In this document: positions 4,051 to 24,276 of the stretch, one piece after another
Layout: each line of letters starts with the position of its first letter
Position numbering within the stretch: position 1 is the first letter of the stretch
From: an uncultured Clostridia bacterium
GTDB taxonomy: Bacteria; Bacillota; Clostridia; Oscillospirales; JAAYOS01
NCBI GenBank assembly: GCA_947593925.1
Contig: CANQDU010000001.1
Coordinates: 141,188 to 205,187, forward strand
Length of the DNA stretch: 64,000 nucleotides
Direction: 5' to 3'
Made by a program: the position numbers and the translations under genes
Notes under the pieces: generated by a model
Databases searched by the model: none
Seen by the model: only the letters and a program-made list of their open reading frames with translations
Told to the model about the DNA's origin: nothing

Positions 4051-4839
4051 TTACAGCATCTTCACGGTATAGTAGACCGCGAGTATGAGCAGATATGCGA
4101 CCATAACAAAGACGAGGTAATACGCCACGGTCGCGCCGAAGATAAATCCGGCAAGAAGGCACGCCGCCGTCACGCCCGCAGTTATGTAGCTGAGAAGGTA
4201 CTTCGTCGTCTTGGGCATGACTTCAAAGGTCCTCGAACCCACCTTGACCGTTCCGTTGTTCTTTTCCACGAGCTTCACGGCGCAGGCGTATGCGGCGAGC
4301 AGTACGAACGCGGCTATGAGGCCGGCTATGGCGAGGTTGAAACGGAAGAACCGTCCCACCACGAACCCGTCCGCTATAGAGCGGCTGAGATACCACAGCA
4401 GAACCGCGCCGCAAGCGCAAACGAGCGACATAAGGAAGAAGTCGTGCGGATAGAGCAGGTAGACGAGTATCAGCGCGCTTGCCACCGGCACGAAAACATA
4501 CATCATCTTCACGCCGCTCGTAGTAAGCGCCGCACAGCAGAACGCGCACACCGCGACTATCGCACAGCCGAGCGCGACGTTCTTTCCGCTGATGACCTTA
4601 TACTCGCGCTTTTCCCCGAATCTCTCCCAGAGAATGCCCGCGACCGTTCCCGCGGCAAAGACCGCCGCCAGAACATACAGCACCTTCCGGATGACAAACA
4701 TCGTCTCGACTCTGGAATACAGTCGGTACGCGCCCATCAGCCCCAGTATCAGCACAAACGCCAGAGTAAACACCGCTAGCACGCGATTTGTGAGGTAATC
4801 CTCCCGGCGCTGCGCCGCCTTTTTATTTTCCGCTGCCAT
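4051..4839 (-). CDS. Integral membrane protein, unknown function
   Basis: The 262-aa ORF has several hydrophobic helices and coding-like composition. I recognise no family. Confidence 0.55.
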   Translation of the reverse strand: MAAENKKAAQRREDYLTNRVLAVFTLAFVLILGLMGAYRLYSRVETMFVIRKVLYVLAAVFAAGTVAGILWERFGEKREYKVISGKNVALGCAIVAVCAFCCAALTTSGVKMMYVFVPVASALILVYLLYPHDFFLMSLVCACGAVLLWYLSRSIADGFVVGRFFRFNLAIAGLIAAFVLLAAYACAVKLVEKNNGTVKVGSRTFEVMPKTTKYLLSYITAGVTAACLLAGFIFGATVAYYLVFVMVAYLLILAVYYTVKML

Positions 4840-4985: not shown

Positions 4986-5381
4986 TTACTCCCGCCGTTC
5001 CAGCTCGAAGGCGTTGGGAAGCAGCTCTTCCCGTCCGAGCTCCCGCCACCCGTTCTCGGGCGAAGCGCAGAGGACGCGGATGTCCGGCGCGAGCTCGAAG
5101 ATGAACTGGCGGCAGATCCCGCAGGGCGTGCAGAACCCGCCCTCGCTCGCGGCGACGGCGAGGCGCACAAACTCCCGCTTCCCCGCGGCTATCGCCGCGC
5201 CGAAAGCCATTCGCTCGGCGCAGACCGTCGCGCCGTAGCTGCCGCATTCGACGTTGCAGCCGACGAAAACCGTTCCGTCCGCGCACTCGAGCGCCGCACC
5301 GACACGGAAGCCCGAGTACGGCGCGTATGCGTTATCCCTCACGCGCCGCGCCTCCGCGACAAGCTCTTTATCAGTCATCAA
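4986..5381 (-). CDS. cdd: Cytidine deaminase
   Basis: The zinc-binding motifs CAER and PCGICRQ are present, and the 131-aa size fits homotetrameric CDA. Confidence 0.85.
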   Translation of the reverse strand: MMTDKELVAEARRVRDNAYAPYSGFRVGAALECADGTVFVGCNVECGSYGATVCAERMAFGAAIAAGKREFVRLAVAASEGGFCTPCGICRQFIFELAPDIRVLCASPENGWRELGREELLPNAFELERRE

Positions 5382-6306
5382 AGCCTACCCTCTCCGCCAC
5401 GATGTAGTACGGACGTCCGCGCGCCTCGTCGAGCACCCGCGAGAGGTACTGGCCGATGATGCCGAGCATCAGCATCACGAGTCCGAGCGCCGCGAGAATT
5501 ATTCCGCCGATATAGTAGAGCGCGTTCACCGCCGTCCAGACGCCCGCGAGGTGCAGTATAAGCGTCACGAGCAGGTAGACGCAGCTCATAAACAGCGTAA
5601 AGATCCCGAGCCCCGTCGCGAACGCGAGCGGCCTGTAGGAGAAGGACGCGATACCGTCGCCCGCGAGGCGGAGCATCTTCTTGAGGGTGTACTTCGTCTC
5701 GCCGACCGTCCGCTCCTCGCGGACATACTCGACCGCCGCCTGCTTAAATCCCACCCAGCTCACAAGCCCTCGGATGTAGCGGTTGTGCTCGGGCAGGGAG
5801 TTCATCACGTCGCAGACCTGCCGGCTGAGCAGGCGGAAGTCGCCGGTGTCTACCGGGATATCGACCGTCGTGAGACTGTCGAGCACGCGGTAGAAGACCT
5901 TCGCCGTGAGCAGCTTGAACGCGGTCTCGCCCTTGCGCTTGCCGCGCTTGCCGTAGACGACGTCGTACCCCTCGCGCCACTTTTCTATCATCACGGGTAT
6001 GACCTCGGGCGGATCCTGAAGATCGGCGTCTATGACGACGACGGCGTCCCCGCGCGACTCCGCCATTCCCGCGCTTATCGCGCACTGATGGCCGAAGTTC
6101 CGCGAGAAGCTTATCAGCTTCGAGCGCGGGTCTCGCGCGCATATACCGCGCAGCAGCTCCGGAGAACTGTCCCGGCTGCCGTCGTTGACAAATATCAGCT
6201 CGTAGTCCTCTCCGGTCCCATCCATGGTTTCCTTGAGGCGGTCGTGGCTCCATTCGATGAGCCCCTCCTCGTTGAAGACCGGCACGACTATGGATATAAG
6301 CGACAT
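5371..6306 (-). CDS. Family 2 glycosyltransferase (polyprenol-phosphate glycosyltransferase-like, C-terminal TM helices)
   Basis: The N-terminus IVVPVFNEE...FVNDGSRD...IDADLQDP is a GT2 signature, followed by two C-terminal TM segments as in the GtrB/ArnC-like group. Confidence 0.8.
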   Translation of the reverse strand: MSLISIVVPVFNEEGLIEWSHDRLKETMDGTGEDYELIFVNDGSRDSSPELLRGICARDPRSKLISFSRNFGHQCAISAGMAESRGDAVVVIDADLQDPPEVIPVMIEKWREGYDVVYGKRGKRKGETAFKLLTAKVFYRVLDSLTTVDIPVDTGDFRLLSRQVCDVMNSLPEHNRYIRGLVSWVGFKQAAVEYVREERTVGETKYTLKKMLRLAGDGIASFSYRPLAFATGLGIFTLFMSCVYLLVTLILHLAGVWTAVNALYYIGGIILAALGLVMLMLGIIGQYLSRVLDEARGRPYYIVAERVGFDD

Positions 6307-6375: not shown

Positions 6376-7293
6376 TCAGGCGCGGACGTGCCGCCCTCTC
6401 CGGCAGGCCAGTCCCCACACGAGCAGCGCCGCTATCGCGGCAAACACCGCCGTCATCGGTACCAGCGCCAGACGCTCGAGCGACGTGAGCTCCGCCGCTT
6501 CGGTCTCCGCGCCCGCAGAAAGCAGGAGCGCGAGCGCCGAGAGGCCGTTGTAGCCTATGTGCATCGCTATCGACGCACCCGCGCCGCACCACACGAAAAC
6601 GAGGCCGAGCAGCAGTCCCGTAGGCAGGACGTAGAGCATCTGCAGCGGCTCCATGTGTACGAGCGCGAACACCGCTCCGGTGATGAGCACCGCCGCCCAC
6701 GCGGGGTACGCTCTGCGGAGCGAGCGCATCGGCATACAGCGGAAGGCTATCTCCTCCGTCACCGGCACGAGCAGCGCGACACAGAATATCATCAGCGGCG
6801 ACGTGTCGGAAAGCGCTTCCCCTACCCCCTCGTTGTAGCTGTCAAGCATCTCCTGCGGTATCGGCAGAAGCTCCATAAGGAAGCTCGTCACGAGGTTCAT
6901 CGCGACGCCGAGGAACAGCGCCATTATGATTGCGAGTATGTCCGGCCGGCCAAACCCCATGTCGCGGAATATTTTTCCGTGGCAGAGCTTCACCACGACG
7001 AGAGCGCTCACTATGGTGAGCGCGCAGTACACCGTCATGATGACCGGCAACATCTCGCTCATGCTCTCCGCCGCCTGCTCCTGCACGGCGCCCACGTCCC
7101 CGCCGTTTACAAGCGCGAGCGAGAACGTCTGCGCAAACATCACGACAAACGTTACCGCTACCTCCGCGACAAGGTACACCGCCGGGAATATCAGCGCGAG
7201 CAGCAGTGCGATCATCTTGCTCGGACGCTTCGGCGCGGGCGGCTCCATGCCGCCGTAATACCGAATGTTTTCGCCGTAACCACGTCCATCCAT
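6376..7293 (-). CDS. CPBP family intramembrane glutamic endopeptidase (CAAX protease/Abi)
   Basis: The EEIAFR and FALVH motifs sit in a polytopic membrane protein. The start codon is uncertain. Confidence 0.75.
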   Translation of the reverse strand: MDGRGYGENIRYYGGMEPPAPKRPSKMIALLLALIFPAVYLVAEVAVTFVVMFAQTFSLALVNGGDVGAVQEQAAESMSEMLPVIMTVYCALTIVSALVVVKLCHGKIFRDMGFGRPDILAIIMALFLGVAMNLVTSFLMELLPIPQEMLDSYNEGVGEALSDTSPLMIFCVALLVPVTEEIAFRCMPMRSLRRAYPAWAAVLITGAVFALVHMEPLQMLYVLPTGLLLGLVFVWCGAGASIAMHIGYNGLSALALLLSAGAETEAAELTSLERLALVPMTAVFAAIAALLVWGLACRRGRHVRA

Positions 7294-7316: not shown

Positions 7317-9323
7317 TTATTCAAGCCCGTAATAGCTCGCAGCGCGCGCCACGTCCGCGCGGAACGTATCCGCCGGAAGGACGGCCGCGCATCCCGCCTC
7401 TCCGCTCGACGCCCAGACTATCCCCACAAGCTCCCCGTCCCGGGAGTACGCGCCCGAGCCGGAGGCTCCCGGAGCGAGCGGTATATCCGTCAGCACCGAA
7501 TCGCCCGCGTACCCCTCGAGCGTCACACTGCCGGAGTGCGCCGCGCCGTCGGAGCCGTCGTAAATGACTATTCTTCCGTCGATCGCGGGCGCGGCGGCCG
7601 AGAGCCGCGCGGCGCGGTTCATGCTCGCCGCCACCTTCAGTATGGCGTAGTCGTGCTCCCCGGATACGCAGTACACCTCCGCCGGGACGCTTCTCCCGCC
7701 CGGAAGCGTGACCGCTATCGCGAGCGCGTCCCGCGCGACGTGCGCGTTCGTCACGATGAGCCCGCCCCTGTGGACGGCTACTCCGCAGGCGGAGCCGACG
7801 CCGTTCTTCAGCGTCACTCTTATCGAGACGCTCTCGCCCGCGAACTTCTCGAGCGCGTCCGGCGTAAGCTCGAACGCCGCCCCGCTTCCGCGTATGGCGA
7901 CAAGGCGCTCGTTTGCAATATATTCCACGTCCGCGCCGAGCGCGGTCATGACAAAGCGGAGCGGCACGAGCGTCCGCGAGGACACTATTTCCGCCGGGAC
8001 ATCCAGCGCCGCCGCCCGGCCGTTCACGGCGGCGGCGGTGCTGCCGATAGTCACCGAGACGCTTCTGCCGCCAAGCGCGGCGAAAGCGGTCTTTGTCACG
8101 CCGTTCCACGACACATCCGCACCGAGCCCTTCGAATATCGCCCGCATCGGCACGAGCAGACGTCCCGAGCGGTTCACCGGCTCGACGTCGAACGTGAGCT
8201 TCTTCCCGTCGAGCAGGACGCGGTACGTCCCGGAGGAGCGCTGCGGAAGCTCGTAGGAGCCGCTTCCCACCCGCATGAACGTGTCATAGTCGAGGCGGTC
8301 TGTCCCGCTGCCGAGCTGACAGCAGACGTTCGAACCCGCCGCCCAGCGCTCGCCGTTAGTCTTGACGGCGGTGATAAAGCTGCCGCCTATCGCGCAGGAC
8401 GCGACGTCGTGCAGAGCCTCGCTCGGCGCGGCCACGCTCCCGGCTCCTATGCCGAGCTCGCCGGCGTTCCCGGTCCCCCATGTGTAGAGCGTGCCGGACG
8501 TGCTCACGGCGGCGAAGCGCCCGCTGTTTGCCGTGACGGACGCCATTCCGGAGCGCAGCAGAACGGCGCGTCCGTCGCGGTAGAGGTACAGCCCTCCCGC
8601 GCGAGTGATGTACAGTATCTCGCTCGATGTGGCGGCGGCCGTCGTGACGCCGTGCGCTATCGTCGTCTCCTTCGCGCGTCCGTTCCCGACGCCGCCGGGA
8701 ACGGCGCTTCCGAGGGCGGAGAGCTCCCCGTCCCGCAGCAGCAGAGTCGTGGCGCCGCCGCAGAACACCGCGTCAACGCCCTCCGCCACGGCCCGCGGGG
8801 CGCTCCCGAGCCGTCTTCCGTCCGGATACTCCCAGGAGGCGTTGCCCCATGCGTAGAGGACGCCGTCCTCCGTGAGGGCATACGCGCGGTTCAGCGCGGC
8901 GGCGGTCTGCTTCACTCCGCCCATGACGAACACCGGCGAGCTCGACTGTTCACTCTTTCCGTTACCGAGCTGACCCTGTTCGCCGTTGCCCCATGCGTAC
9001 AGATCGCCGGAGGCGGTCACGGCGTAGGAGCTCCACTGTCCGGCGGCGATGCCCGCCGTGCCGCGCATAACAAGGCGAGGCTCGGCATACGAGACGTTCG
9101 TCCCGATGCCGAGCTGACCGTAGCGGTTGTCGCCCCACGCATATACCTCGCCCGAGCCGCGAAGCTCGAGCGTGTGATATCGTCCCGCGGCAAGGACGCC
9201 GGGCGCGTCCTCCGCAAGCGCGGCGGCGGAAATCTCCGCCGCCGCCGTGTTTACGGTAAGAAGCGGCAGGAGAAGCGCGAGCGCCGCAAGCGCCGCCGAA
9301 AGGCGGCGAAACGCCGTGCGCAT
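7317..9323 (-). CDS. Secreted multidomain protein: RCC1-like repeats + copper-amine-oxidase-N-like (stalk) domain + trypsin-like serine peptidase domain
   Basis: A signal peptide (MRTAFRRLSAALAALALLLPLL) is followed by repeated YAWG(xN)xxGQLG motifs. Next come LVPMRAIFEGLGADVSW...LVPLRFVMTALGADVEY, then TNAHV...DYAILKV...GASGSG. Confidence 0.75.
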   Translation of the reverse strand: MRTAFRRLSAALAALALLLPLLTVNTAAAEISAAALAEDAPGVLAAGRYHTLELRGSGEVYAWGDNRYGQLGIGTNVSYAEPRLVMRGTAGIAAGQWSSYAVTASGDLYAWGNGEQGQLGNGKSEQSSSPVFVMGGVKQTAAALNRAYALTEDGVLYAWGNASWEYPDGRRLGSAPRAVAEGVDAVFCGGATTLLLRDGELSALGSAVPGGVGNGRAKETTIAHGVTTAAATSSEILYITRAGGLYLYRDGRAVLLRSGMASVTANSGRFAAVSTSGTLYTWGTGNAGELGIGAGSVAAPSEALHDVASCAIGGSFITAVKTNGERWAAGSNVCCQLGSGTDRLDYDTFMRVGSGSYELPQRSSGTYRVLLDGKKLTFDVEPVNRSGRLLVPMRAIFEGLGADVSWNGVTKTAFAALGGRSVSVTIGSTAAAVNGRAAALDVPAEIVSSRTLVPLRFVMTALGADVEYIANERLVAIRGSGAAFELTPDALEKFAGESVSIRVTLKNGVGSACGVAVHRGGLIVTNAHVARDALAIAVTLPGGRSVPAEVYCVSGEHDYAILKVAASMNRAARLSAAAPAIDGRIVIYDGSDGAAHSGSVTLEGYAGDSVLTDIPLAPGASGSGAYSRDGELVGIVWASSGEAGCAAVLPADTFRADVARAASYYGLE

Positions 9324-17676: not shown

Positions 17677-18684
17677 ATGAATACTATGATTTGGGGAGAG
17701 ACCGAGTTCGGCACGGCGCATGTTTATACCCTCACTGCGGGAAAGAGCACGGCGCGCGTGAGCGACTTCGGCGCGACGCTCATCGAGTGGAAATATGACG
17801 GTGTGAGCCTCGTGCTCGGCTCGGACGAGCTCGGGTTCTATCTCGGCAAGTGCGGCTCGATGGGTGCTTCGATAGGCCGCTTTGCAAACCGCATCGCGGC
17901 GGGAAAATTCACCCTCGACGGCAGGGAGTACACTCTCAACTGCAACGAGGGGAAAAACCACCTCCACGGCGGCTTCAAGGGCTTTGAGAAGCGGCTGTGG
18001 ACGGCGCATCCCGAGGGAGACAGCGCCGTCACCTTCACCTACGTCTCGCCGGACGGCGAGGAGAACTATCCCGCGACGCTCACCGTCTCGGTGCGCTACG
18101 AGCTCGGCGAGGACGGCGCTCTCTCGCTCTGCTACCATGCCTCGAGCGACGGCGCTACCATTCTCAATCTCACAAACCACAGCTACTTCAACCTCGGCTG
18201 TGAGCGCGACATTCTCGGCTGCAAGGTCACTATCCCCGCAGACCGCTTCGTCGAGACCGGCGAGGGTTCGATACCCACCGGAAAGCTCGCGGACGTGACC
18301 GGCACTGTGATGGACCTGCGCGGCGGCGTCGTCATGGGCGACAGGATGGCGGACGAATACCTCGTCCCCACCGGCGGCTACGACCACTGCTTCGTACTCG
18401 GTGACGAGCGCACCGAGTCTCTGCACCTCGCGGCGAAGGTCGAGGCGCCGAACGGCGTCACGCTCGAGTGCCTCACCGACCAGCCGAGCGTCCAGCTCTA
18501 CTGCGGCTGTCAGCTTGACGGCTCGCTGAAGGCTCGCGGCCGGAGCTTCGGAAGGTACTCCGCGCTCTGTCTCGAGACGCAGGTCTTCCCCGACTCGCCA
18601 AATCACGAGGGCTTCACGAACTGCGTCCTCCGCCCGGGCGAGACCTTCGAGACAAGGACCGTTTACAGGGTACATAAAGCCTGA
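17677..18684 (+). CDS. galM: Aldose 1-epimerase (galactose mutarotase)
   Basis: GRFANRIA...F.LDG..Y.L..N.G.NHLHGG is the family signature. Confidence 0.85.
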   Translation: MNTMIWGETEFGTAHVYTLTAGKSTARVSDFGATLIEWKYDGVSLVLGSDELGFYLGKCGSMGASIGRFANRIAAGKFTLDGREYTLNCNEGKNHLHGGFKGFEKRLWTAHPEGDSAVTFTYVSPDGEENYPATLTVSVRYELGEDGALSLCYHASSDGATILNLTNHSYFNLGCERDILGCKVTIPADRFVETGEGSIPTGKLADVTGTVMDLRGGVVMGDRMADEYLVPTGGYDHCFVLGDERTESLHLAAKVEAPNGVTLECLTDQPSVQLYCGCQLDGSLKARGRSFGRYSALCLETQVFPDSPNHEGFTNCVLRPGETFETRTVYRVHKA

Positions 18685-18725
18685 ACCGTTCCGCGTCACG
18701 GCGGCGCACAAATTCCGTAATAATA

Positions 18726-18755
18726 AAACCTCCGGCTCTCGCCGGAGGTTTTTCT
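18726..18755. terminator. Bidirectional terminator between galM and the radC-like gene
   Basis: The hairpin aaacctccggc...gccggaggttttt is flanked by A- and T-runs. Confidence 0.6.
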
Positions 18756-18756
18756 C

Positions 18757-19668
18757 TTATTCGGGCAGATCCTCGTAGAGGCGATTTATCTCGCGGCTCA
18801 TCGCGTACGACGCTATCTGCGGCTCCCTTGAAAGCAGCCCCATTATGTCGCCCTCCGTCCCCGCCGCGCGAGGGCGGTCGGAATAGCTTCTGGAGCCGAC
18901 GTTGTGCCCGAAGTGCAGAACGGGCCGTCCCTCCAGCTCGCTCCGCTCGATATACTTCCCCGTCGGGTTCAGCCGCCGCCTGTACGATGAGGTCTCGCCT
19001 CCGTGAAGCACTATGTAGTCGCAGAACTCCGCCCCGACGGCGGCGAGCGCCCGCGATATCAGAGCTATGCTCTCGCTTTCCGCGCCCTCCCGCACGGGGC
19101 TCTCCTCCGAGTCGTCCCGAAAGGCGAGGATGACCCTCCTCGCGTCCATACGCACGGCCGCCGAGATCATATCGACGGCGGAGAAGTCACTCTCCATCGG
19201 ACGGACGTCTATCAGACGGCTCACGCCGTCCAGTCCGAGTAGCGCCGCGTCGGTCTTAGGCTGCGCCGCGAAGTATCCTCTCACTATCCGCTCCGCCGTC
19301 TCCGGGTCTGTGACGCTCTCGTGCGCGCGCGTGCGCGACCGCTCGCAAGCCTCCGCCGCTCTTCCGAAGTCAAGCAGAAACTCCGCCGCGCGCTCGCCTA
19401 TCCCGTCCACCTGCATGAGCTCGCTCTTCTCCGCATGCATCACGCCGTAGACCGTTTTAAACCTGTCTATGAGCATGTGGCCGAGGACGTTGGTGTCCTT
19501 CCGCGCTATCGGCGTCCAGAGCACGGTCTCCAAGAGCTCGTGCGGCGCGAGCGCCGACGCCATGCCACGGAGTATCTTCTCCCGCATCCTCGCCCTGTGC
19601 TTTGAATGGCTTATCCCCTCGTAACGTCCGACCGCTTCGGACGCTCCCTCGGCATTTCCCTTCCGCAT
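18757..19668 (-). CDS. RadC-like protein with degenerate (metal-ligand-less) JAB domain and C-terminal extension
   Basis: The N-terminus HSKHRARMREKIL...ELLETVL...GIGERAA matches the RadC HhH region. Where RadC has HNHPSG, this protein reads AFRDDSEE. Confidence 0.6.
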   Translation of the reverse strand: MRKGNAEGASEAVGRYEGISHSKHRARMREKILRGMASALAPHELLETVLWTPIARKDTNVLGHMLIDRFKTVYGVMHAEKSELMQVDGIGERAAEFLLDFGRAAEACERSRTRAHESVTDPETAERIVRGYFAAQPKTDAALLGLDGVSRLIDVRPMESDFSAVDMISAAVRMDARRVILAFRDDSEESPVREGAESESIALISRALAAVGAEFCDYIVLHGGETSSYRRRLNPTGKYIERSELEGRPVLHFGHNVGSRSYSDRPRAAGTEGDIMGLLSREPQIASYAMSREINRLYEDLPE

Positions 19669-20421
19669 CTATTTCACCTCTCCGTCCTGCCCGCTTACGA
19701 GCTTTCCGCCGCGCAGGCTGAAGCTCCGCCACAGCTCGACCGGGCCCGGCCCGTCCAGCATCCCGCTTTCGTACATGGATACATAGTCGCCGTCGTACAC
19801 AACGATATGGTCAAGCAGCTCCTTGCCGAGGCACAGGAGAAGCCATCCGAGCATCTTCGTCGCGGTGAGGTCTGCGGCGGACGGCAGTGCGGCGCTCGAG
19901 GGATGGTTGTGCGCGAGCACGACGCCCCGCACGTCATCCCGAAGCGCGGCGTCCACTATGGCGTGGATGTTTGCGCGGACGTTTCTCTCGTCTCCCGCCG
20001 AGACGATGAACCTGCCGAGCACGCGATCCTTCGCGTCGCAGGTGACGACCACCACCTTCTCGACCGGCTCGTTCCGGTACAGATCCATGAGCGCGAGGCC
20101 GACATACTCCGAGGTCGGAAGCTGCCGTCCCCGCACTATCTTGGGATTTGCCGGGCGCGCGCCGTGTCCGAGCGCTATCCTCCGCCTGTCCTCGGCAAAC
20201 TGCCTTCCCGTGCGGAGGGCGAGATGCGCCGCCTCGCGTGTTCTCTTGCCGTAGTCGCCCGTGCTCACCGCCTTCACCGCTTCGTAGAGGCCGCCGCAGT
20301 CCGCAAGCAGCCGTCTTGCCTCCTCCGCCGCGTTCTCCGTGCCGCCGCAGTTCAGCAGAAATTCGAGTATCTCCGCCTCACCCGCGTCCCGCGGGAGTCT
20401 CGGTGTAGGCATAGCTCTCAT
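19669..20421 (-). CDS. radC: RadC family JAB-domain protein (intact HNHPS motif)
   Basis: LAHNHPSSAALPSAADLTAT is the JAB/MPN+ motif. The start is uncertain (20412, 20421 or 20472). The stop abuts the start of the next gene (19668/19669). Confidence 0.7.
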   Translation of the reverse strand: MRAMPTPRLPRDAGEAEILEFLLNCGGTENAAEEARRLLADCGGLYEAVKAVSTGDYGKRTREAAHLALRTGRQFAEDRRRIALGHGARPANPKIVRGRQLPTSEYVGLALMDLYRNEPVEKVVVVTCDAKDRVLGRFIVSAGDERNVRANIHAIVDAALRDDVRGVVLAHNHPSSAALPSAADLTATKMLGWLLLCLGKELLDHIVVYDGDYVSMYESGMLDGPGPVELWRSFSLRGGKLVSGQDGEVK

Positions 20422-20475
20422 TCCTTTCCCGTAACGTCTTTGCGGCCGCGAAAACGCGGCCGTGCAATTCAAATA

Positions 20476-21132
20476 TCAATCGGCTGTCGCCGCCGCGACC
20501 GCCGCGCCGAGCACCTCCGAGGCGCCCGCGGCGCGGAGCGCTCGCGCGCACTCGCGCATAGTCGCGCCGGTGGTGACTACGTCGTCTATAAGAAGCACTC
20601 GCTTCCCCGCGACAAGCTCCGGCTCCGTCGCTCTGTACGCGCCGCGCACGTTTTCCCTTCGTTCCTCCGGGCCGAGTGAGGAGTTCGGGTCGGTGTGGCG
20701 CGTCTTTTCAAGCGTCGATACGGCGACGGTGCCGAGGCGCTCCGCCGCCGCTTCCGCCAGCAGCATCGCCTGGTCGTAGCCGCGCTCGCGACGGCGCTCG
20801 CGGCTCACCGGCGCCCACGTCACGACGTCGTACCGTCCCGCAAACCTGCGCCGCACCTCGTCCGCGGCAAACGCCGCGAGCGGTCTCGCGAAGTCGGCTC
20901 TGTCCCTGAATTTGAAGCGGAGTATCGCCCGCCGCACGTTTCCGGAATAGACGAGCGGCGCGCACACCTCTCCGAGCGCGCCGCTCGGCGGCCGAAGGTT
21001 CTCGTTATACTCTATCGAGCGGCGGCAGGCGCGGCAGACGCGCCCCTCGCGCTCGTTCTTCTCAAGCACTCTGCCGCAGAACACGCACTTCGGCGGAAAG
21101 AGCAGAGCGCCAAGCGCACGCAATATTCCCAT
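20476..21132 (-). CDS. comFC: ComF family protein (ComFC, PRTase fold with N-terminal zinc ribbon)
   Basis: CVFCG...CRAC is followed by the PRPP loop LLIDDVVTTGAT. Confidence 0.8.
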   Translation of the reverse strand: MGILRALGALLFPPKCVFCGRVLEKNEREGRVCRACRRSIEYNENLRPPSGALGEVCAPLVYSGNVRRAILRFKFRDRADFARPLAAFAADEVRRRFAGRYDVVTWAPVSRERRRERGYDQAMLLAEAAAERLGTVAVSTLEKTRHTDPNSSLGPEERRENVRGAYRATEPELVAGKRVLLIDDVVTTGATMRECARALRAAGASEVLGAAVAAATAD

Positions 21133-21146
21133 CTTCGCCTCCGCAG

Positions 21147-23390
21147 TCAGAGCATTCTCGCGCGGAGGCCGCTGTAACGGCGGCGGCGGCGGTTGTTCCG
21201 CACCATCGTCTCGACGGCGGCCTCGCTCCCGACTATCACGAGGAGCTTCTGCGCGCGGGTTATCGCGGTATAGAAGACCGGCCTTGTCATCAGCCTCGGC
21301 GGAGCGTCGCTCGCGACGAGCACCACCGCCGGATACTCGCTGCCCTGCGACTTGTGCACCGTCACCGCGTACGCCGGCTCGAGCTGCTCCATCAGCTCGA
21401 ACGGATAGACGACTATGCGGTCGTCGTATCGGACGGTCGTAGTCTCAGCGCGGGTGTCTATATCGACGATGATCCCGACGTCGCCGTTGAACACGCCCAT
21501 GCCGTTTTCCGCCGAGTCCGTGCTCCTCCACTGGAGGTCGTAGTTGTTCTGTATGTGCATCACCCTGTCGCCCGTGCGGAAGGTGAAATCGCCGCTCCGG
21601 CGCTCCGCCTTGCCCTCGGCGGGAGGGTTCAGCGCCGCCTGGAGCAGGCGGTTAAGCTCCGCCGTTCCTGCGGGGCCGCGCCGCGTGGGCGAGAGCACCT
21701 GTATCTGCGCGGGGTCAAAGCCCATATTCGTCGGGAGCCTCCGCGCGCAGAGATCGACGACGGTCTCCGCCGTGCGCACAGCGTCGGCGCGCCGGACAAA
21801 GAACAGGTCGCCGCTCTTGTGCCTCAGCTCGGGAACTTCCCCGCGGTTGACGGCGTGCGCGGCGAGGACTATGTTCGAGCTGCGCGCCTGCCGGAATATC
21901 TCGGTGAGGCGCACGGTCTTTATCGTTCCGCAGGAGAGCAGGTCGCCGAGCACGCTCCCCGGTCCGACGCTCGGAAGCTGGTCCGGGTCGCCCACAAGTA
22001 TGAGACGCGCCTCGGGACGGAGCGCGTCCAGAAGCGCCGAAAAGAGCGCGAGATCGACCATCGAGCACTCGTCGAGCACGACGACGTCCGCCGCGAGCGG
22101 ATTTTCCGCGTCGTGGACAAAGCTGAAGCCCGCCTCGCCGGAGGAGAAGTCCACCTCGAGCAGGCGGTGGACGGTCATCGCGTCCCTGCCGGTGAGCTCG
22201 GAGAGGCGCTTCGCCGCGCGCCCCGTGGGGCTCGCAAGCCTCGTCTCGAGCCCCATCCTGTCAAACACCGAGAGCATGCCGCGCACCGAGGTTGACTTTC
22301 CGGTGCCGGGTCCGCCGGTGAGGAGCATCACCCGCTCGCTCGCGGCGACACGTATCGCCTCGCGCTGGAGCGGCGCGTAGTCCACGCCCTCCCGCTCGCT
22401 TATGCTCTCAATCATCTCTTCGAGGTGCGCCGGCGGGTCGGGCGGCGTCATTGCCATGAGGCGGAGACGGCTCGCGACGTCTGTCTCCGCGCGGTGGAGC
22501 CGCGCGAGGTAGACGGCGTCCTCGTCCCCTATCTTCTCGCACACCGCCGCGCCGGTCTCGCACAGCCTGTCTATGGCGTCGCCGGCGAGCTCCGGGGAGA
22601 CGCGGAGCATCTCCCCCGTCGCGGCGGCGAGCTTGTCCGCGGGGATATAGACGTGGCCGTTCCGCGAATTGTACTCGAGCTCGTAGAGCACGCCCGCCTC
22701 TATACGCATCGGCGAGTCCTCCGCGAACCCGAGGTCGAGCGCCATGCCGTCCGCCCGCGCGAACTCCACCCCGACCTCCTCGTGGGAAAGTATGTAGGGG
22801 TTCTGCTTTATCAGATCCTCCGCGAGGCTGCCGTACCAGCGGTAAAGCCGCAAGGCGACCTCCGGGTCTATACCGTAGCCGAGGAGCTGCTCCATCAGGC
22901 GGCGGATGCCGGTCTGACGGCGGAAGCTCTCCGCGAGCCGCTCCGCCTTCGCCTTGTTCATGCCGGGCAGCTCCGCGACGAGCTCCGGCGAGCTCTCGAG
23001 CACGTCGAACACGTCTCTGCCGAACTTCTCCACGAGGCGCTGCGCCGTCGCGGCTCCGATGCCGGGGAGGTTCCCGCTCGCAAGGTAGCGCACGATGGAC
23101 GCGGTGTCGGCGGGAAGCGTCCGTTCGGCGCGCTCCGCCTTGAACTGGTCGCCGTAGGAGGCGTGGTGCGTCCAGCTTCCCTCGAGCCAGACGTTCTCCC
23201 CCGCACAGATATACGGGAGCGTACCCACGACGGTGACGAGGTCGTCCCCGCCGTCCACCGCGAGGCGGAACACGGCGTAGCCGTTCTTTTCGTTGTGGAA
23301 TATCACGCTCTCGACAGAGCCGGAAAGCTCGTTCTGCGAGTGAAGCTCCTCCGCGTCCAGCTTTGCGAGCTCCTGCTCAAAGTCGTCCAT
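21147..23390 (-). CDS. recD2: SF1B ATP-dependent DNA helicase RecD2
   Basis: It is 747 aa with an HhH region, Walker A GGPGTGKS, VLDECSMVD, and a C-terminal SH3-like region plus TVHKSQGSE. Confidence 0.85.
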   Translation of the reverse strand: MDDFEQELAKLDAEELHSQNELSGSVESVIFHNEKNGYAVFRLAVDGGDDLVTVVGTLPYICAGENVWLEGSWTHHASYGDQFKAERAERTLPADTASIVRYLASGNLPGIGAATAQRLVEKFGRDVFDVLESSPELVAELPGMNKAKAERLAESFRRQTGIRRLMEQLLGYGIDPEVALRLYRWYGSLAEDLIKQNPYILSHEEVGVEFARADGMALDLGFAEDSPMRIEAGVLYELEYNSRNGHVYIPADKLAAATGEMLRVSPELAGDAIDRLCETGAAVCEKIGDEDAVYLARLHRAETDVASRLRLMAMTPPDPPAHLEEMIESISEREGVDYAPLQREAIRVAASERVMLLTGGPGTGKSTSVRGMLSVFDRMGLETRLASPTGRAAKRLSELTGRDAMTVHRLLEVDFSSGEAGFSFVHDAENPLAADVVVLDECSMVDLALFSALLDALRPEARLILVGDPDQLPSVGPGSVLGDLLSCGTIKTVRLTEIFRQARSSNIVLAAHAVNRGEVPELRHKSGDLFFVRRADAVRTAETVVDLCARRLPTNMGFDPAQIQVLSPTRRGPAGTAELNRLLQAALNPPAEGKAERRSGDFTFRTGDRVMHIQNNYDLQWRSTDSAENGMGVFNGDVGIIVDIDTRAETTTVRYDDRIVVYPFELMEQLEPAYAVTVHKSQGSEYPAVVLVASDAPPRLMTRPVFYTAITRAQKLLVIVGSEAAVETMVRNNRRRRRYSGLRARML

Positions 23391-23703
23391 CTTCTCCCCC
23401 CGTATATCCCGATTTGTCGAGCGGAACGCCCTCTCTCAGCGCGCACACCTCCGCGCGCCGCCGTGCGTCCGCGTCGAGGCCGCGGTCAACGAGCCTGACG
23501 TTCGCTCCGCACCGCGCGGCGAGCTCCGCCGCCGCGTGAAGCGTCCGCTCGAGCTCCGGCGCGTCTCCCCGCGCCGATACCGTGACCTCGACCGAGACCT
23601 GTTCGCCGCCTATACGCATCCTCACTCCGAACAGTCCGTAATAGAAAAGCATCAGCAGGCCGAGCGCCGCCGCGCCCGCTATCACATACTCGTACCACTC
23701 CAT
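23377..23703 (-). CDS. Small membrane-anchored protein, unknown function
   Basis: MEWYEYVIAGAAALGLLMLFYYGLF forms one TM helix. The stop overlaps the recD2 start by 14 nt. Confidence 0.4.
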   Translation of the reverse strand: MEWYEYVIAGAAALGLLMLFYYGLFGVRMRIGGEQVSVEVTVSARGDAPELERTLHAAAELAARCGANVRLVDRGLDADARRRAEVCALREGVPLDKSGYTGGEDGRL

Positions 23704-23808
23704 CTCCGCGCACCTCCGCCCATACAGCCGCCGCCCACCGGAAGTTTCCGCGGGTTCGGCTCCCGTCAGCCGTATCACAGTTTATGAGCGAAAGCGCCGC
23801 TTTGACAT

Positions 23809-24276
23809 TCAGCCGAATATCGCCGCCGCGCCGTAGGTCATGGCGCTCACGGCAAACGCCGCGACGACCACCCCGAGCGCTATGGCGGGCATGGCCTTCT
23901 TCAGGCGCATATCCATCACCGCCGCGACGAGCGCGCCGGTCCACGCGCCCGTCCCGGGCAGCGGCACCGCCACGAGCAGAAACAGCCCGAACCACATCAT
24001 CCTGTGCGAAAGCACCTTGTTCGCGCCGCGCTCCGCCTTCTTTTCGAGGCGGTAGATGAGGCTCCCGAAGCGTCCCTTATCCTTCAGCCACGCGAAAATC
24101 TTCCTTATGAACAGGATGATGAGCGGCGCGGGCAGCAGGTTCCCCACGACCGACACTCCCATCACCTGCCACCACGGCAGACCGAAGGCGAAGCCGTAGG
24201 GTATCGCGCCGCGCAGCTCGACAAGCGGCAGCATGGATATGCCGAACGTCGCGAGCAGGTGAATAAGTTCCGTCAT
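23809..24276 (-). CDS. Small multidrug-export-like membrane protein (COG2426 family)
   Basis: LPLVELRGAIPYG...PLPGTGAWTGAL is typical of this family. Confidence 0.65.
   Translation of the reverse strand: MTELIHLLATFGISMLPLVELRGAIPYGFAFGLPWWQVMGVSVVGNLLPAPLIILFIRKIFAWLKDKGRFGSLIYRLEKKAERGANKVLSHRMMWFGLFLLVAVPLPGTGAWTGALVAAVMDMRLKKAMPAIALGVVVAAFAVSAMTYGAAAIFG

Follow-up and report, generated by a model that had tools for sequence, protein, structure and literature searches.

The 64,000-nucleotide stretch analysed here (the window; contig CANQDU010000001.1, positions 141,188 to 205,187, of an uncultured Clostridia bacterium) carries two abutting radC-like genes, named act and deg in this study, at the end of a recD2-comFC operon. 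Each has kept what the other has lost: act has an intact JAB metal site behind a degenerate N-terminus, while deg has an intact N-terminal module followed by a JAB-like domain without metal ligands. The explanation that I favour, with about as much confidence for it as against it, is a lineage-specific, sub-functionalised two-gene RadC, in which act and deg form a hetero-oligomer that rebuilds one complete RadC and acts on DNA. Few bacterial proteins that still lack an assigned activity are as widespread as RadC, whose name is recognised as misleading. A preliminary description of the window had proposed tandem RadC paralogs at the end of a recD2-comFC operon, and gene calls, family matches, gene spacing, and a terminator bore this out. 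The features of the pair, in window coordinates, are:

19669-20412, minus strand: RadC-act, 247 aa (alternative start 20421, 250 aa; open reading frame 19669-20472/20421)
19870-19911, minus strand: JAB metal motif of act, HNHPSSAALPSAAD, residues 168-181, aligned to the family consensus AHNHPSGxxxPSxxD
19669-19690, minus strand: act-deg junction, a Shine-Dalgarno (SD)-like GGAGAGG within the act 3' end, then TAG abutting the deg ATG
18757-19668, minus strand: RadC-deg, 303 aa, RadC-derived, no metal ligands, ~70-aa C-terminal extension
19576-19608, minus strand: canonical RadC N-terminal basic motif HSKHRARMREK of deg, residues 21-31, absent from act
19102-19125, minus strand: former metal site of deg, AFRDDSEE, residues 182-189, where the family has AHNHPSG
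18760-18972, minus strand: C-terminal extension of deg, residues 233-303, with Y239, H252, and E293 invariant in the deg family

The act product matched the RadC JAB family PF04002 at 86.1 bits (cut-off 22.1, E 2.2e-24) and its MPN+/JAMM motif, HxH...S..D, is complete, as had been noted at first. The N-terminal module gave no such signal: UPF0758_N (PF20582) was not matched even at E<=1, and a RadC hidden Markov model built from 67 canonical proteins aligned to act from position 104 onward only. In direct alignment the basic motif HxxHRxRxR was missing and the second helix-hairpin-helix (HhH) hairpin read YGKR, not G[IV]GE, with residual N-terminal homology still visible. The protein accordingly scored below the NCBIfam RadC cut-offs (64.4 versus 133.85 bits for TIGR00608, and 85.2 versus 180 bits for NF000642). 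The open reading frame 19669-20421 first assigned to this gene exists, but the likelier start is the ATG at 20412 (MPTPRL), where three relatives have ATG, GTG, and ATG and where AAGGA lies 9 nt upstream; the ATG at 20421 is missing from one relative.

That deg keeps the N-terminal HhH region of RadC was upheld. Its match to UPF0758_N reached 27.1 bits, exactly at the cut-off, the HSKHRARMREK motif and the DGIGE hairpin are both present, and the protein aligned to positions 1-214 of the 218 of TIGR00608 (E 2.5e-16, ~60 bits, below the curated cut-off of 133.85). In an alignment of 99 RadCs, H21, G23, H24, R25, and R27 of the N motif were at least 90% conserved, as were the JAB-site residues HNH, P, S, and D. 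It is the latter set that deg has lost: with PF04002 at 13 bits (E 0.1, cut-off 22.1), its JAB domain is below recognition by sequence, and alignment placed AFRDDSEE, as first reported, where the metal-binding motif should be. All metal ligands are gone, HNH having become FRD and the motif Ser and Asp having become Glu. The deg family nevertheless has invariant residues of its own (D147, R151, A182, R184, D217, Y239, H252, and E293), and at the former metal site A-[FL]-R is kept while the remaining positions vary (AFRQ in lineage II, ALRDD), which leaves no conserved alternative metal site. This pattern of retained residues indicates a site that was remodelled, not merely eroded.

Structure prediction agreed with the earlier suggestion that deg has a JAB fold. 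In an AlphaFold2 (AF2) model based on the 99-sequence alignment, the predicted local distance difference test (pLDDT) exceeded 90 over much of the N-domain and was 81-92 over most of residues 121-230, the JAB-like region, where helices and strands alternate as expected. A Foldseek search of the PDB with this model returned RadC 2QLC chains as the top five hits (probability 1.00, TM (target) 0.67-0.71, 15-18% identity), with archaeal JAMM1 and Rpn11/BRCC36-type MPN domains far behind, and the N-domain model matched Hef, XPF, and DisA HhH domains (probability 0.94-0.99). The model, guided by an alignment in which canonical RadCs dominate, predicts that deg has retained the JAB fold of RadC. The C-terminal extension, previously put at ~90 aa, is in fact ~70 aa long; it had no Pfam, PADLOC, or PHROG match and was modelled at pLDDT 39-70, with helices at residues 259-263, 272-279, and 283-299.

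Since act is itself degenerate in its N-terminal module, act and deg are complementary; this N-terminal loss, as read from the alignments, goes beyond the preliminary description, which had called only one of the two genes degenerate. The two proteins aligned with 28% identity over 75 aa (E 0.019), a marginal similarity that speaks for an old divergence and not for a fresh duplication. Chance resemblance is no issue, because act and deg are clear RadC homologues and are the only RadC-like genes in this 1.87-Mb, 95%-complete genome.

Both genes are under selection. The ratio of non-synonymous to synonymous substitution rates (dN/dS; Nei-Gojobori, pairwise against three orthologous loci) was 0.14-0.37 for the N-domain of deg, 0.12-0.32 for its JAB-like domain, and 0.02-0.31 for its extension; for the N-terminal and JAB parts of act it was 0.02-0.27, and for the neighbouring genes recD2, comFC, and galM 0.06-0.19. 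The 25-aa C-terminal tail of act gave 0.32 and 0.86 and was undefined in one comparison; it is the sole domain of the pair that nears neutrality, and it does so only in the most distant comparison. Every domain of act and deg is therefore under purifying selection except this tail.

The two genes are also tied together at their junction. deg starts at base 19668, directly after the act TAG, as had been stated, which leaves a gap of 0 nt (GGAGAGGTGAAA-TAG-ATG). The junction reads TAGATG in the window and in two relatives and TAAATG in a relative that is 69% identical; the stop-start abutment and the SD are thus kept in four genomes while the identity of the stop codon varies. This conserved arrangement indicates that act and deg are translationally coupled.

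The same division of features was found outside the window. Among the best 150 phmmer hits, a list biased by the degenerate query (deg), 19 proteins, most of them of ~430-540 aa, have two RadC modules in one chain, an architecture found here in Clostridia:

Double RadCs: P0007, P0013-P0015, P0017, P0021, P0025, P0036, P0047, P0049, P0065, P0066
Double RadCs, continued: P0084, P0089, P0095, P0103, P0122, P0123, P0150
Module 1 of the double RadCs: N motif canonical in 19/19, JAB site degenerate in 10/19 (YTHRHG, YNHPSG...PFPAE, FSHPHG)
Module 2 of the double RadCs: N motif absent in 19/19, JAB site intact in 19/19

In these fusions, as in the window pair, the module with the N motif is often JAB-degenerate and the module without it is always JAB-intact. 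They differ in being one polypeptide, deg-like then act-like, while the window has two genes, act then deg. Such fusions can be read as Rosetta-stone evidence that modules of these kinds function together. The fusion P0007 lies in a housekeeping context, prfC-trmB-[double radC]-rpoB-rpoC, and L030:6001-7404 is a locus of this family. Another, P0014 (766 aa), has an extra C-terminal region with a HAHGDH (metallo-beta-lactamase-like) motif.

A second instance of split genes was found in genus g15, which belongs to another family of the same order. All three of its genomes have an adjacent or overlapping pair, deg-type then act-type (L073:1749-3127 in G021; L077 and L078 in G050 and G070). The deg-type protein has HGGHRKRLR and a degenerate JAB site, L[SC]HGDG, and the act-type protein has no N motif and reads HNHPGG...PS..D. 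The division of features between two abutting or overlapping genes is that of the window, but the gene order is reversed, there is no C-terminal extension, and the pair is not beside comFC. Both g15 proteins had ordinary single RadCs as their best BLAST matches, and for this reason the g15 pair probably has another independent origin.

An independent origin was also indicated for the fusions. In a JAB-domain tree, a quick one of 118 columns that counts as moderate evidence, most fusion modules fell into one of two clades, M1 or M2 (SH-aLRT 95 each), and the deg clade (SH-aLRT 98) and the act clade of the window lay outside both, so the window pair and the fusions appear to have arisen independently. 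Some fusions, for example P0103, were separate recent duplications in this tree. The N-domain tree was unresolved and showed only the monophyly of the deg family (SH-aLRT 82). The window pair was also considered as a split member of the double-RadC fusion family, and the JAB tree gave this no support. The phmmer hits further contained ~39 single RadC-like entries, including the deg family, with a degenerate JAB site behind an intact N motif. Tandem RadC genes in which both copies have the N motif and an intact JAB site were seen at L071:2921-4640 (G508), and further undegenerated tandems at L043:834-2630 and L044:2631-4427 (JGI metagenome contigs). Such an undegenerated tandem duplication may be the starting state of split pairs.

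The pair has taken the place of an ordinary radC. In G009, a genome of a sister genus in the same family, a canonical 241-aa radC stands between homologues of the window genes at 6376-7293 (CAAX/Rce1-like protease) and 5371-6306 (GT2 glycosyltransferase), in a block (L024:7527-10129) that is otherwise colinear with window 7317-9323, 6376-7293, 5371-6306, and 4051-4839. In the window only a 69-nt spacer separates these two genes. Because this slot is empty and the pair provides the only RadC-like genes of the genome, the canonical radC was replaced by act and deg. The slot was also considered as the classic radC-mreB position, which was rejected since its flanks are the CAAX protease and the GT2 glycosyltransferase.

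Of 251 sampled genomes of the order, each at least 90% complete, 235 had a JAB match, almost always in one canonical gene of 225-300 aa, and 16 had none. Only one of the 251, G004 of the window's own genus, had an N-domain match without a JAB match. Fifteen of the 251 had neither a JAB nor an N-domain match and so lacked RadC altogether; they include the three sampled genomes of g3, a genus of the same family as the window, and the three of g26. Some of these gut lineages can therefore do without RadC.

The relatives are uncultured Clostridia metagenome-assembled genomes (MAGs) from rabbit gut. Within the genus, both gene types were found in five of six species and the tandem in four:

G000, G003, G005, G001: comFC-act-deg tandem, with galM beyond it
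G002: deg-type gene next to spo0A, 33% identical and with a longer extension; act-type gene on a different contig
G004 (97% complete, 70 contigs): same deg-type gene as G002; JAB gene not detected

In both G002 and G004 the deg-type gene adjoins spo0A and a gene for a large surface-type protein, not comFC. The act-type gene of G002 (L023:7098-8003, contig C15) lies directly downstream of a probable tRNA gene (T-arm-like translation ...GSNP...) and has MazG-like, nitroreductase, Fur-like, and MGMT-like genes as neighbours. The recD2-comFC adjacency itself is present in G002, G004, G009, and G028, where other genes follow, such as AhpC or mreB; it is thus older and wider than the pair, and the attachment of the pair to the operon is specific to one sub-lineage. 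The co-occurrence that the preliminary description had asked about therefore held in part: the tandem recurs, but in one genus only, and its linkage to recD2 and comFC is limited to that sub-lineage.

The deg family is narrow. A word-indexed search of 5.8 billion proteins gave three close deg clusters only, and an exhaustive phmmer search of 1.84 billion representatives gave four 50%-identity clusters at E<=1e-30, all deg-type with extensions, followed by a gap down to ordinary RadCs at ~1e-21. No further member was found in the 251 genomes of the order or in ~400 of the class, class-level searches with P0146 and P0010 returned no deg orthologue beyond the window genome, and a metagenome scan for deg loci returned only a lineage-II contig and canonical RadCs. 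The family is limited to a single small genus of uncultured gut bacteria together with a few metagenomic lineages. An origin from a mobile element or a defence system was considered and rejected: the window proteins had no PADLOC match, their sole PHROG match was the generic 'DNA repair protein' JAB family (act), and the flanking genes are housekeeping genes.

Taken as one RadC in two pieces, act and deg would assemble into a hetero-oligomer to which deg would contribute the nucleic-acid-binding head and a scaffold in the form of its pseudo-JAB domain, and act the single active (metal) site. The complex would act on DNA, as a nuclease or in other DNA processing, and would share a pathway with RecD2 and ComFC in single-stranded DNA (ssDNA) handling or recombination. 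The placement on DNA follows the proposal of a nuclease or DNA-processing role for RadC (Iyer et al. 2011, PMC3239186) and the view of inactive JABs as DNA-binding (PMC3239186, PMC5512222), and it agrees with findings in Legionella, where radC is regulated together with comF and other competence genes (PMC12378983). An operon with RecD2 and ComFC would offer a candidate pathway, in which single-stranded or incoming DNA is processed. When act and deg were modelled by AF2 as one chain, an artificial construct in that the TAG was read as Gly and with an act half only four sequences deep, the model had a predicted TM score of 0.39, and the confidence of the deg extension in it was unchanged.

Repeated independent splitting suggests that ordinary RadC is an oligomer that requires just one N motif and one active site per functional unit. 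A broader version holds that RadC is generally an asymmetric oligomer, the HxxHRxRxR/HhH head of one protomer working in trans with the JAB site of another, and that evolution exposed this organisation at least three times independently (window, g15, and fusions), each time by assigning the two requirements to separate protomers. This version is tentative, and I regard it as rather doubtful as it stands. The natural split can still be read as a structural prediction, that of an asymmetric hetero- or homo-oligomer, since the same split evolved repeatedly. act and deg would also be ready-made separation-of-function proteins for RadC biochemistry; if the in-trans oligomer is real, split pairs would be the best reagents for assigning an activity to RadC, in the ssDNA context set by RecD2 and ComFC. 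Narrow as the deg family is, the recurring pattern bears on the long-standing question of RadC function.

Several known systems are close to the pair without matching it. Canonical RadC (YicR, UPF0758), which combines the UPF0758_N HhH region with a JAB domain as in 2QLC, is covered along its full length by the alignment with deg and across its JAB domain by that with act; the fold predicted for deg is that of 2QLC, and an association with DNA-handling and competence genes fits radC regulation. In contrast to it, neither window protein is complete (60 and 64 bits against 133.85 for TIGR00608), deg carries ~70 additional aa, and the canonical gene is gone from the window genome. No paper found by full-text literature searches described active/inactive RadC pairs, the complementary loss at the N-terminus, or double-RadC fusions.

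The favoured explanation is modelled on the eukaryotic MPN+/MPN- pairs (Rpn11-Rpn8, CSN5-CSN6, BRCC36-KIAA0157/Abraxas), in which an inactive partner supports an active one. These are proven heterodimers acting as deubiquitinases or deneddylases (e.g. PMC4579573). The window pair resembles them as an active and an inactive paralogue of the same predicted fold, with the two genes side by side, to which extent the MPN-type pairing put forward at first stands; strict co-occurrence does not, given five of six species and G004 with deg only. The window pair further differs in that its split also involves the N-terminal module. For RadC-type JABs the literature argues against binding of ubiquitin tails, since the groove for these is lacking, and predicts an action on nucleic acid (PMC5512222, PMC3239186); no genes for ubiquitin-like proteins, E1, or E2 were noted among the open reading frames and family matches examined around the pair. 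The pair would thereby add a bacterial, nucleic-acid-oriented counterpart to the eukaryotic theme. A third comparison is offered by the inactive RadC JABs of fusobacteria, which occur in fusions with DinG/RAD3-like helicases (Iyer et al. 2011, PMC3239186): like deg they have lost the zinc ligands, but no active partner has been described for them, while deg is free-standing and paired with an active paralogue.

A number of observations weigh against a two-gene RadC. In G002 act and deg are on different contigs, with deg beside spo0A and not comFC, so co-location is not required. In G004 no JAB gene was found even with the G002 act protein as query, in a MAG that is fragmented. Together, the unlinked genes of G002 and the lone deg of G004 mean that strict obligate pairing is not established. 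The invariant residues of the deg family (R184, Y239, H252, and E293) would fit a new independent function equally. None of the literature found establishes an oligomeric state for RadC, and the proposed co-transcription of recD2, comFC, act, and deg is based on gene spacing and the terminator.

These points keep alive the strongest competitor, in which act and deg are two independent proteins: deg a stand-alone, non-catalytic DNA-binding protein with a new function gained through its extension, act the sole RadC enzyme with a drifted N-terminus, and their adjacency in one sub-lineage a historical accident of tandem duplication or insertion. I consider this somewhat less probable than a two-gene RadC, though a serious contender. 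It accounts readily for deg without a JAB gene in G004, for the unlinked genes of G002, and for the spo0A and surface-protein neighbourhood of deg in both; the deg family (P0009, P0010, P0011, and lineage I) goes back to one origin, predates the tandem, and has its own invariant residues, and inactive RadC JABs have been suggested as plain, non-catalytic DNA-binding domains (Iyer et al. 2011, PMC3239186). It accounts poorly for losses that are exactly complementary and that recur both in the g15 pair and in fusions, whose modules cannot come apart, or for the conserved stop-start coupling and the presence of both types in five of six species, and the absence of act from G004, one of its main supports, is based on a fragmented MAG.

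An unlikely alternative is that deg inhibits or regulates act, as a pseudoenzyme that caps it or competes with it or with the DNA substrate and is no constructive subunit. Pseudoenzyme paralogues commonly regulate active relatives, translation of deg after act from a coupled start would fix their ratio, and the deg-specific extension is conserved. Nothing specific favours inhibition, however. PADLOC and PHROG gave no toxin-antitoxin or defence signature, and the fused proteins tether the inactive module permanently, which is more in keeping with a structural role than with inhibition that can be switched. That deg is a decaying duplicate, or that the pair is one gene with a read-through stop, is effectively refuted, for although both frames are in phase with a single stop codon between them and the deg JAB domain is scarcely recognised by Pfam, dN/dS is 0.02-0.37 in all deg domains, an intact deg frame is kept by six species (down to 33% identity) as well as by the four 50%-identity clusters of the 1.84-billion-protein library, act ends with TAG in three genomes but with TAA in a fourth, and deg is preceded by an SD and begins with an ATG of its own.

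The pair is the last part of a group of four co-directional minus-strand genes, recD2, comFC, act, and deg. The remaining features around it are:

21147-23390, minus strand: recD2, first large gene of the operon, SF1B helicase RecD2/YrrC (TIGR01448 E 5.3e-241, above the curated cut-off)
20476-21132, minus strand: comFC, ComF-family phosphoribosyltransferase-like with an N-terminal double zinc ribbon (PF00156 E 4e-11, PF18912 E 2.5e-7)
20443-20462, minus strand: GC-rich hairpin in the comFC-act spacer, perfect 8-bp stem, CGGCCGCG-TTTT-CGCGGCCG, read from the sequence
18725-18752, both strands: bidirectional intrinsic terminator hairpin, 12-bp stem AAAACCTCCGGC/GCCGGAGGTTTT, with A/T runs on its flanks
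17677-18684, plus strand: galM (PF01263 E 5e-77), convergent with deg

The recD2 product contains the Pfam domains OB_YrrC, HHH_RecD2, AAA_30, SH3_13, and UvrD_C_2, and the comFC product matched TIGR00201 (comF) at E 1.4e-26, below the family cut-off. The spacer from the recD2 stop to comFC is 14 nt and that from comFC to act 63 nt. The hairpin in the latter spacer has no U-tract after it and was not flagged by the terminator scan; its possible roles are in RNA processing, in RNA stability, or in weak attenuation between comFC and the two radC-like genes. No terminator was flagged before the end of deg, and the hairpin at 18725-18752 is common to deg and the convergent galM. At the other end of the operon, a 133-aa open reading frame without a Pfam match (23377-23778), which comes after a gene for an Sm_multidrug_ex membrane protein (23809-24276), overlaps the start of recD2 by 14 nt and may be on the same transcript as recD2.

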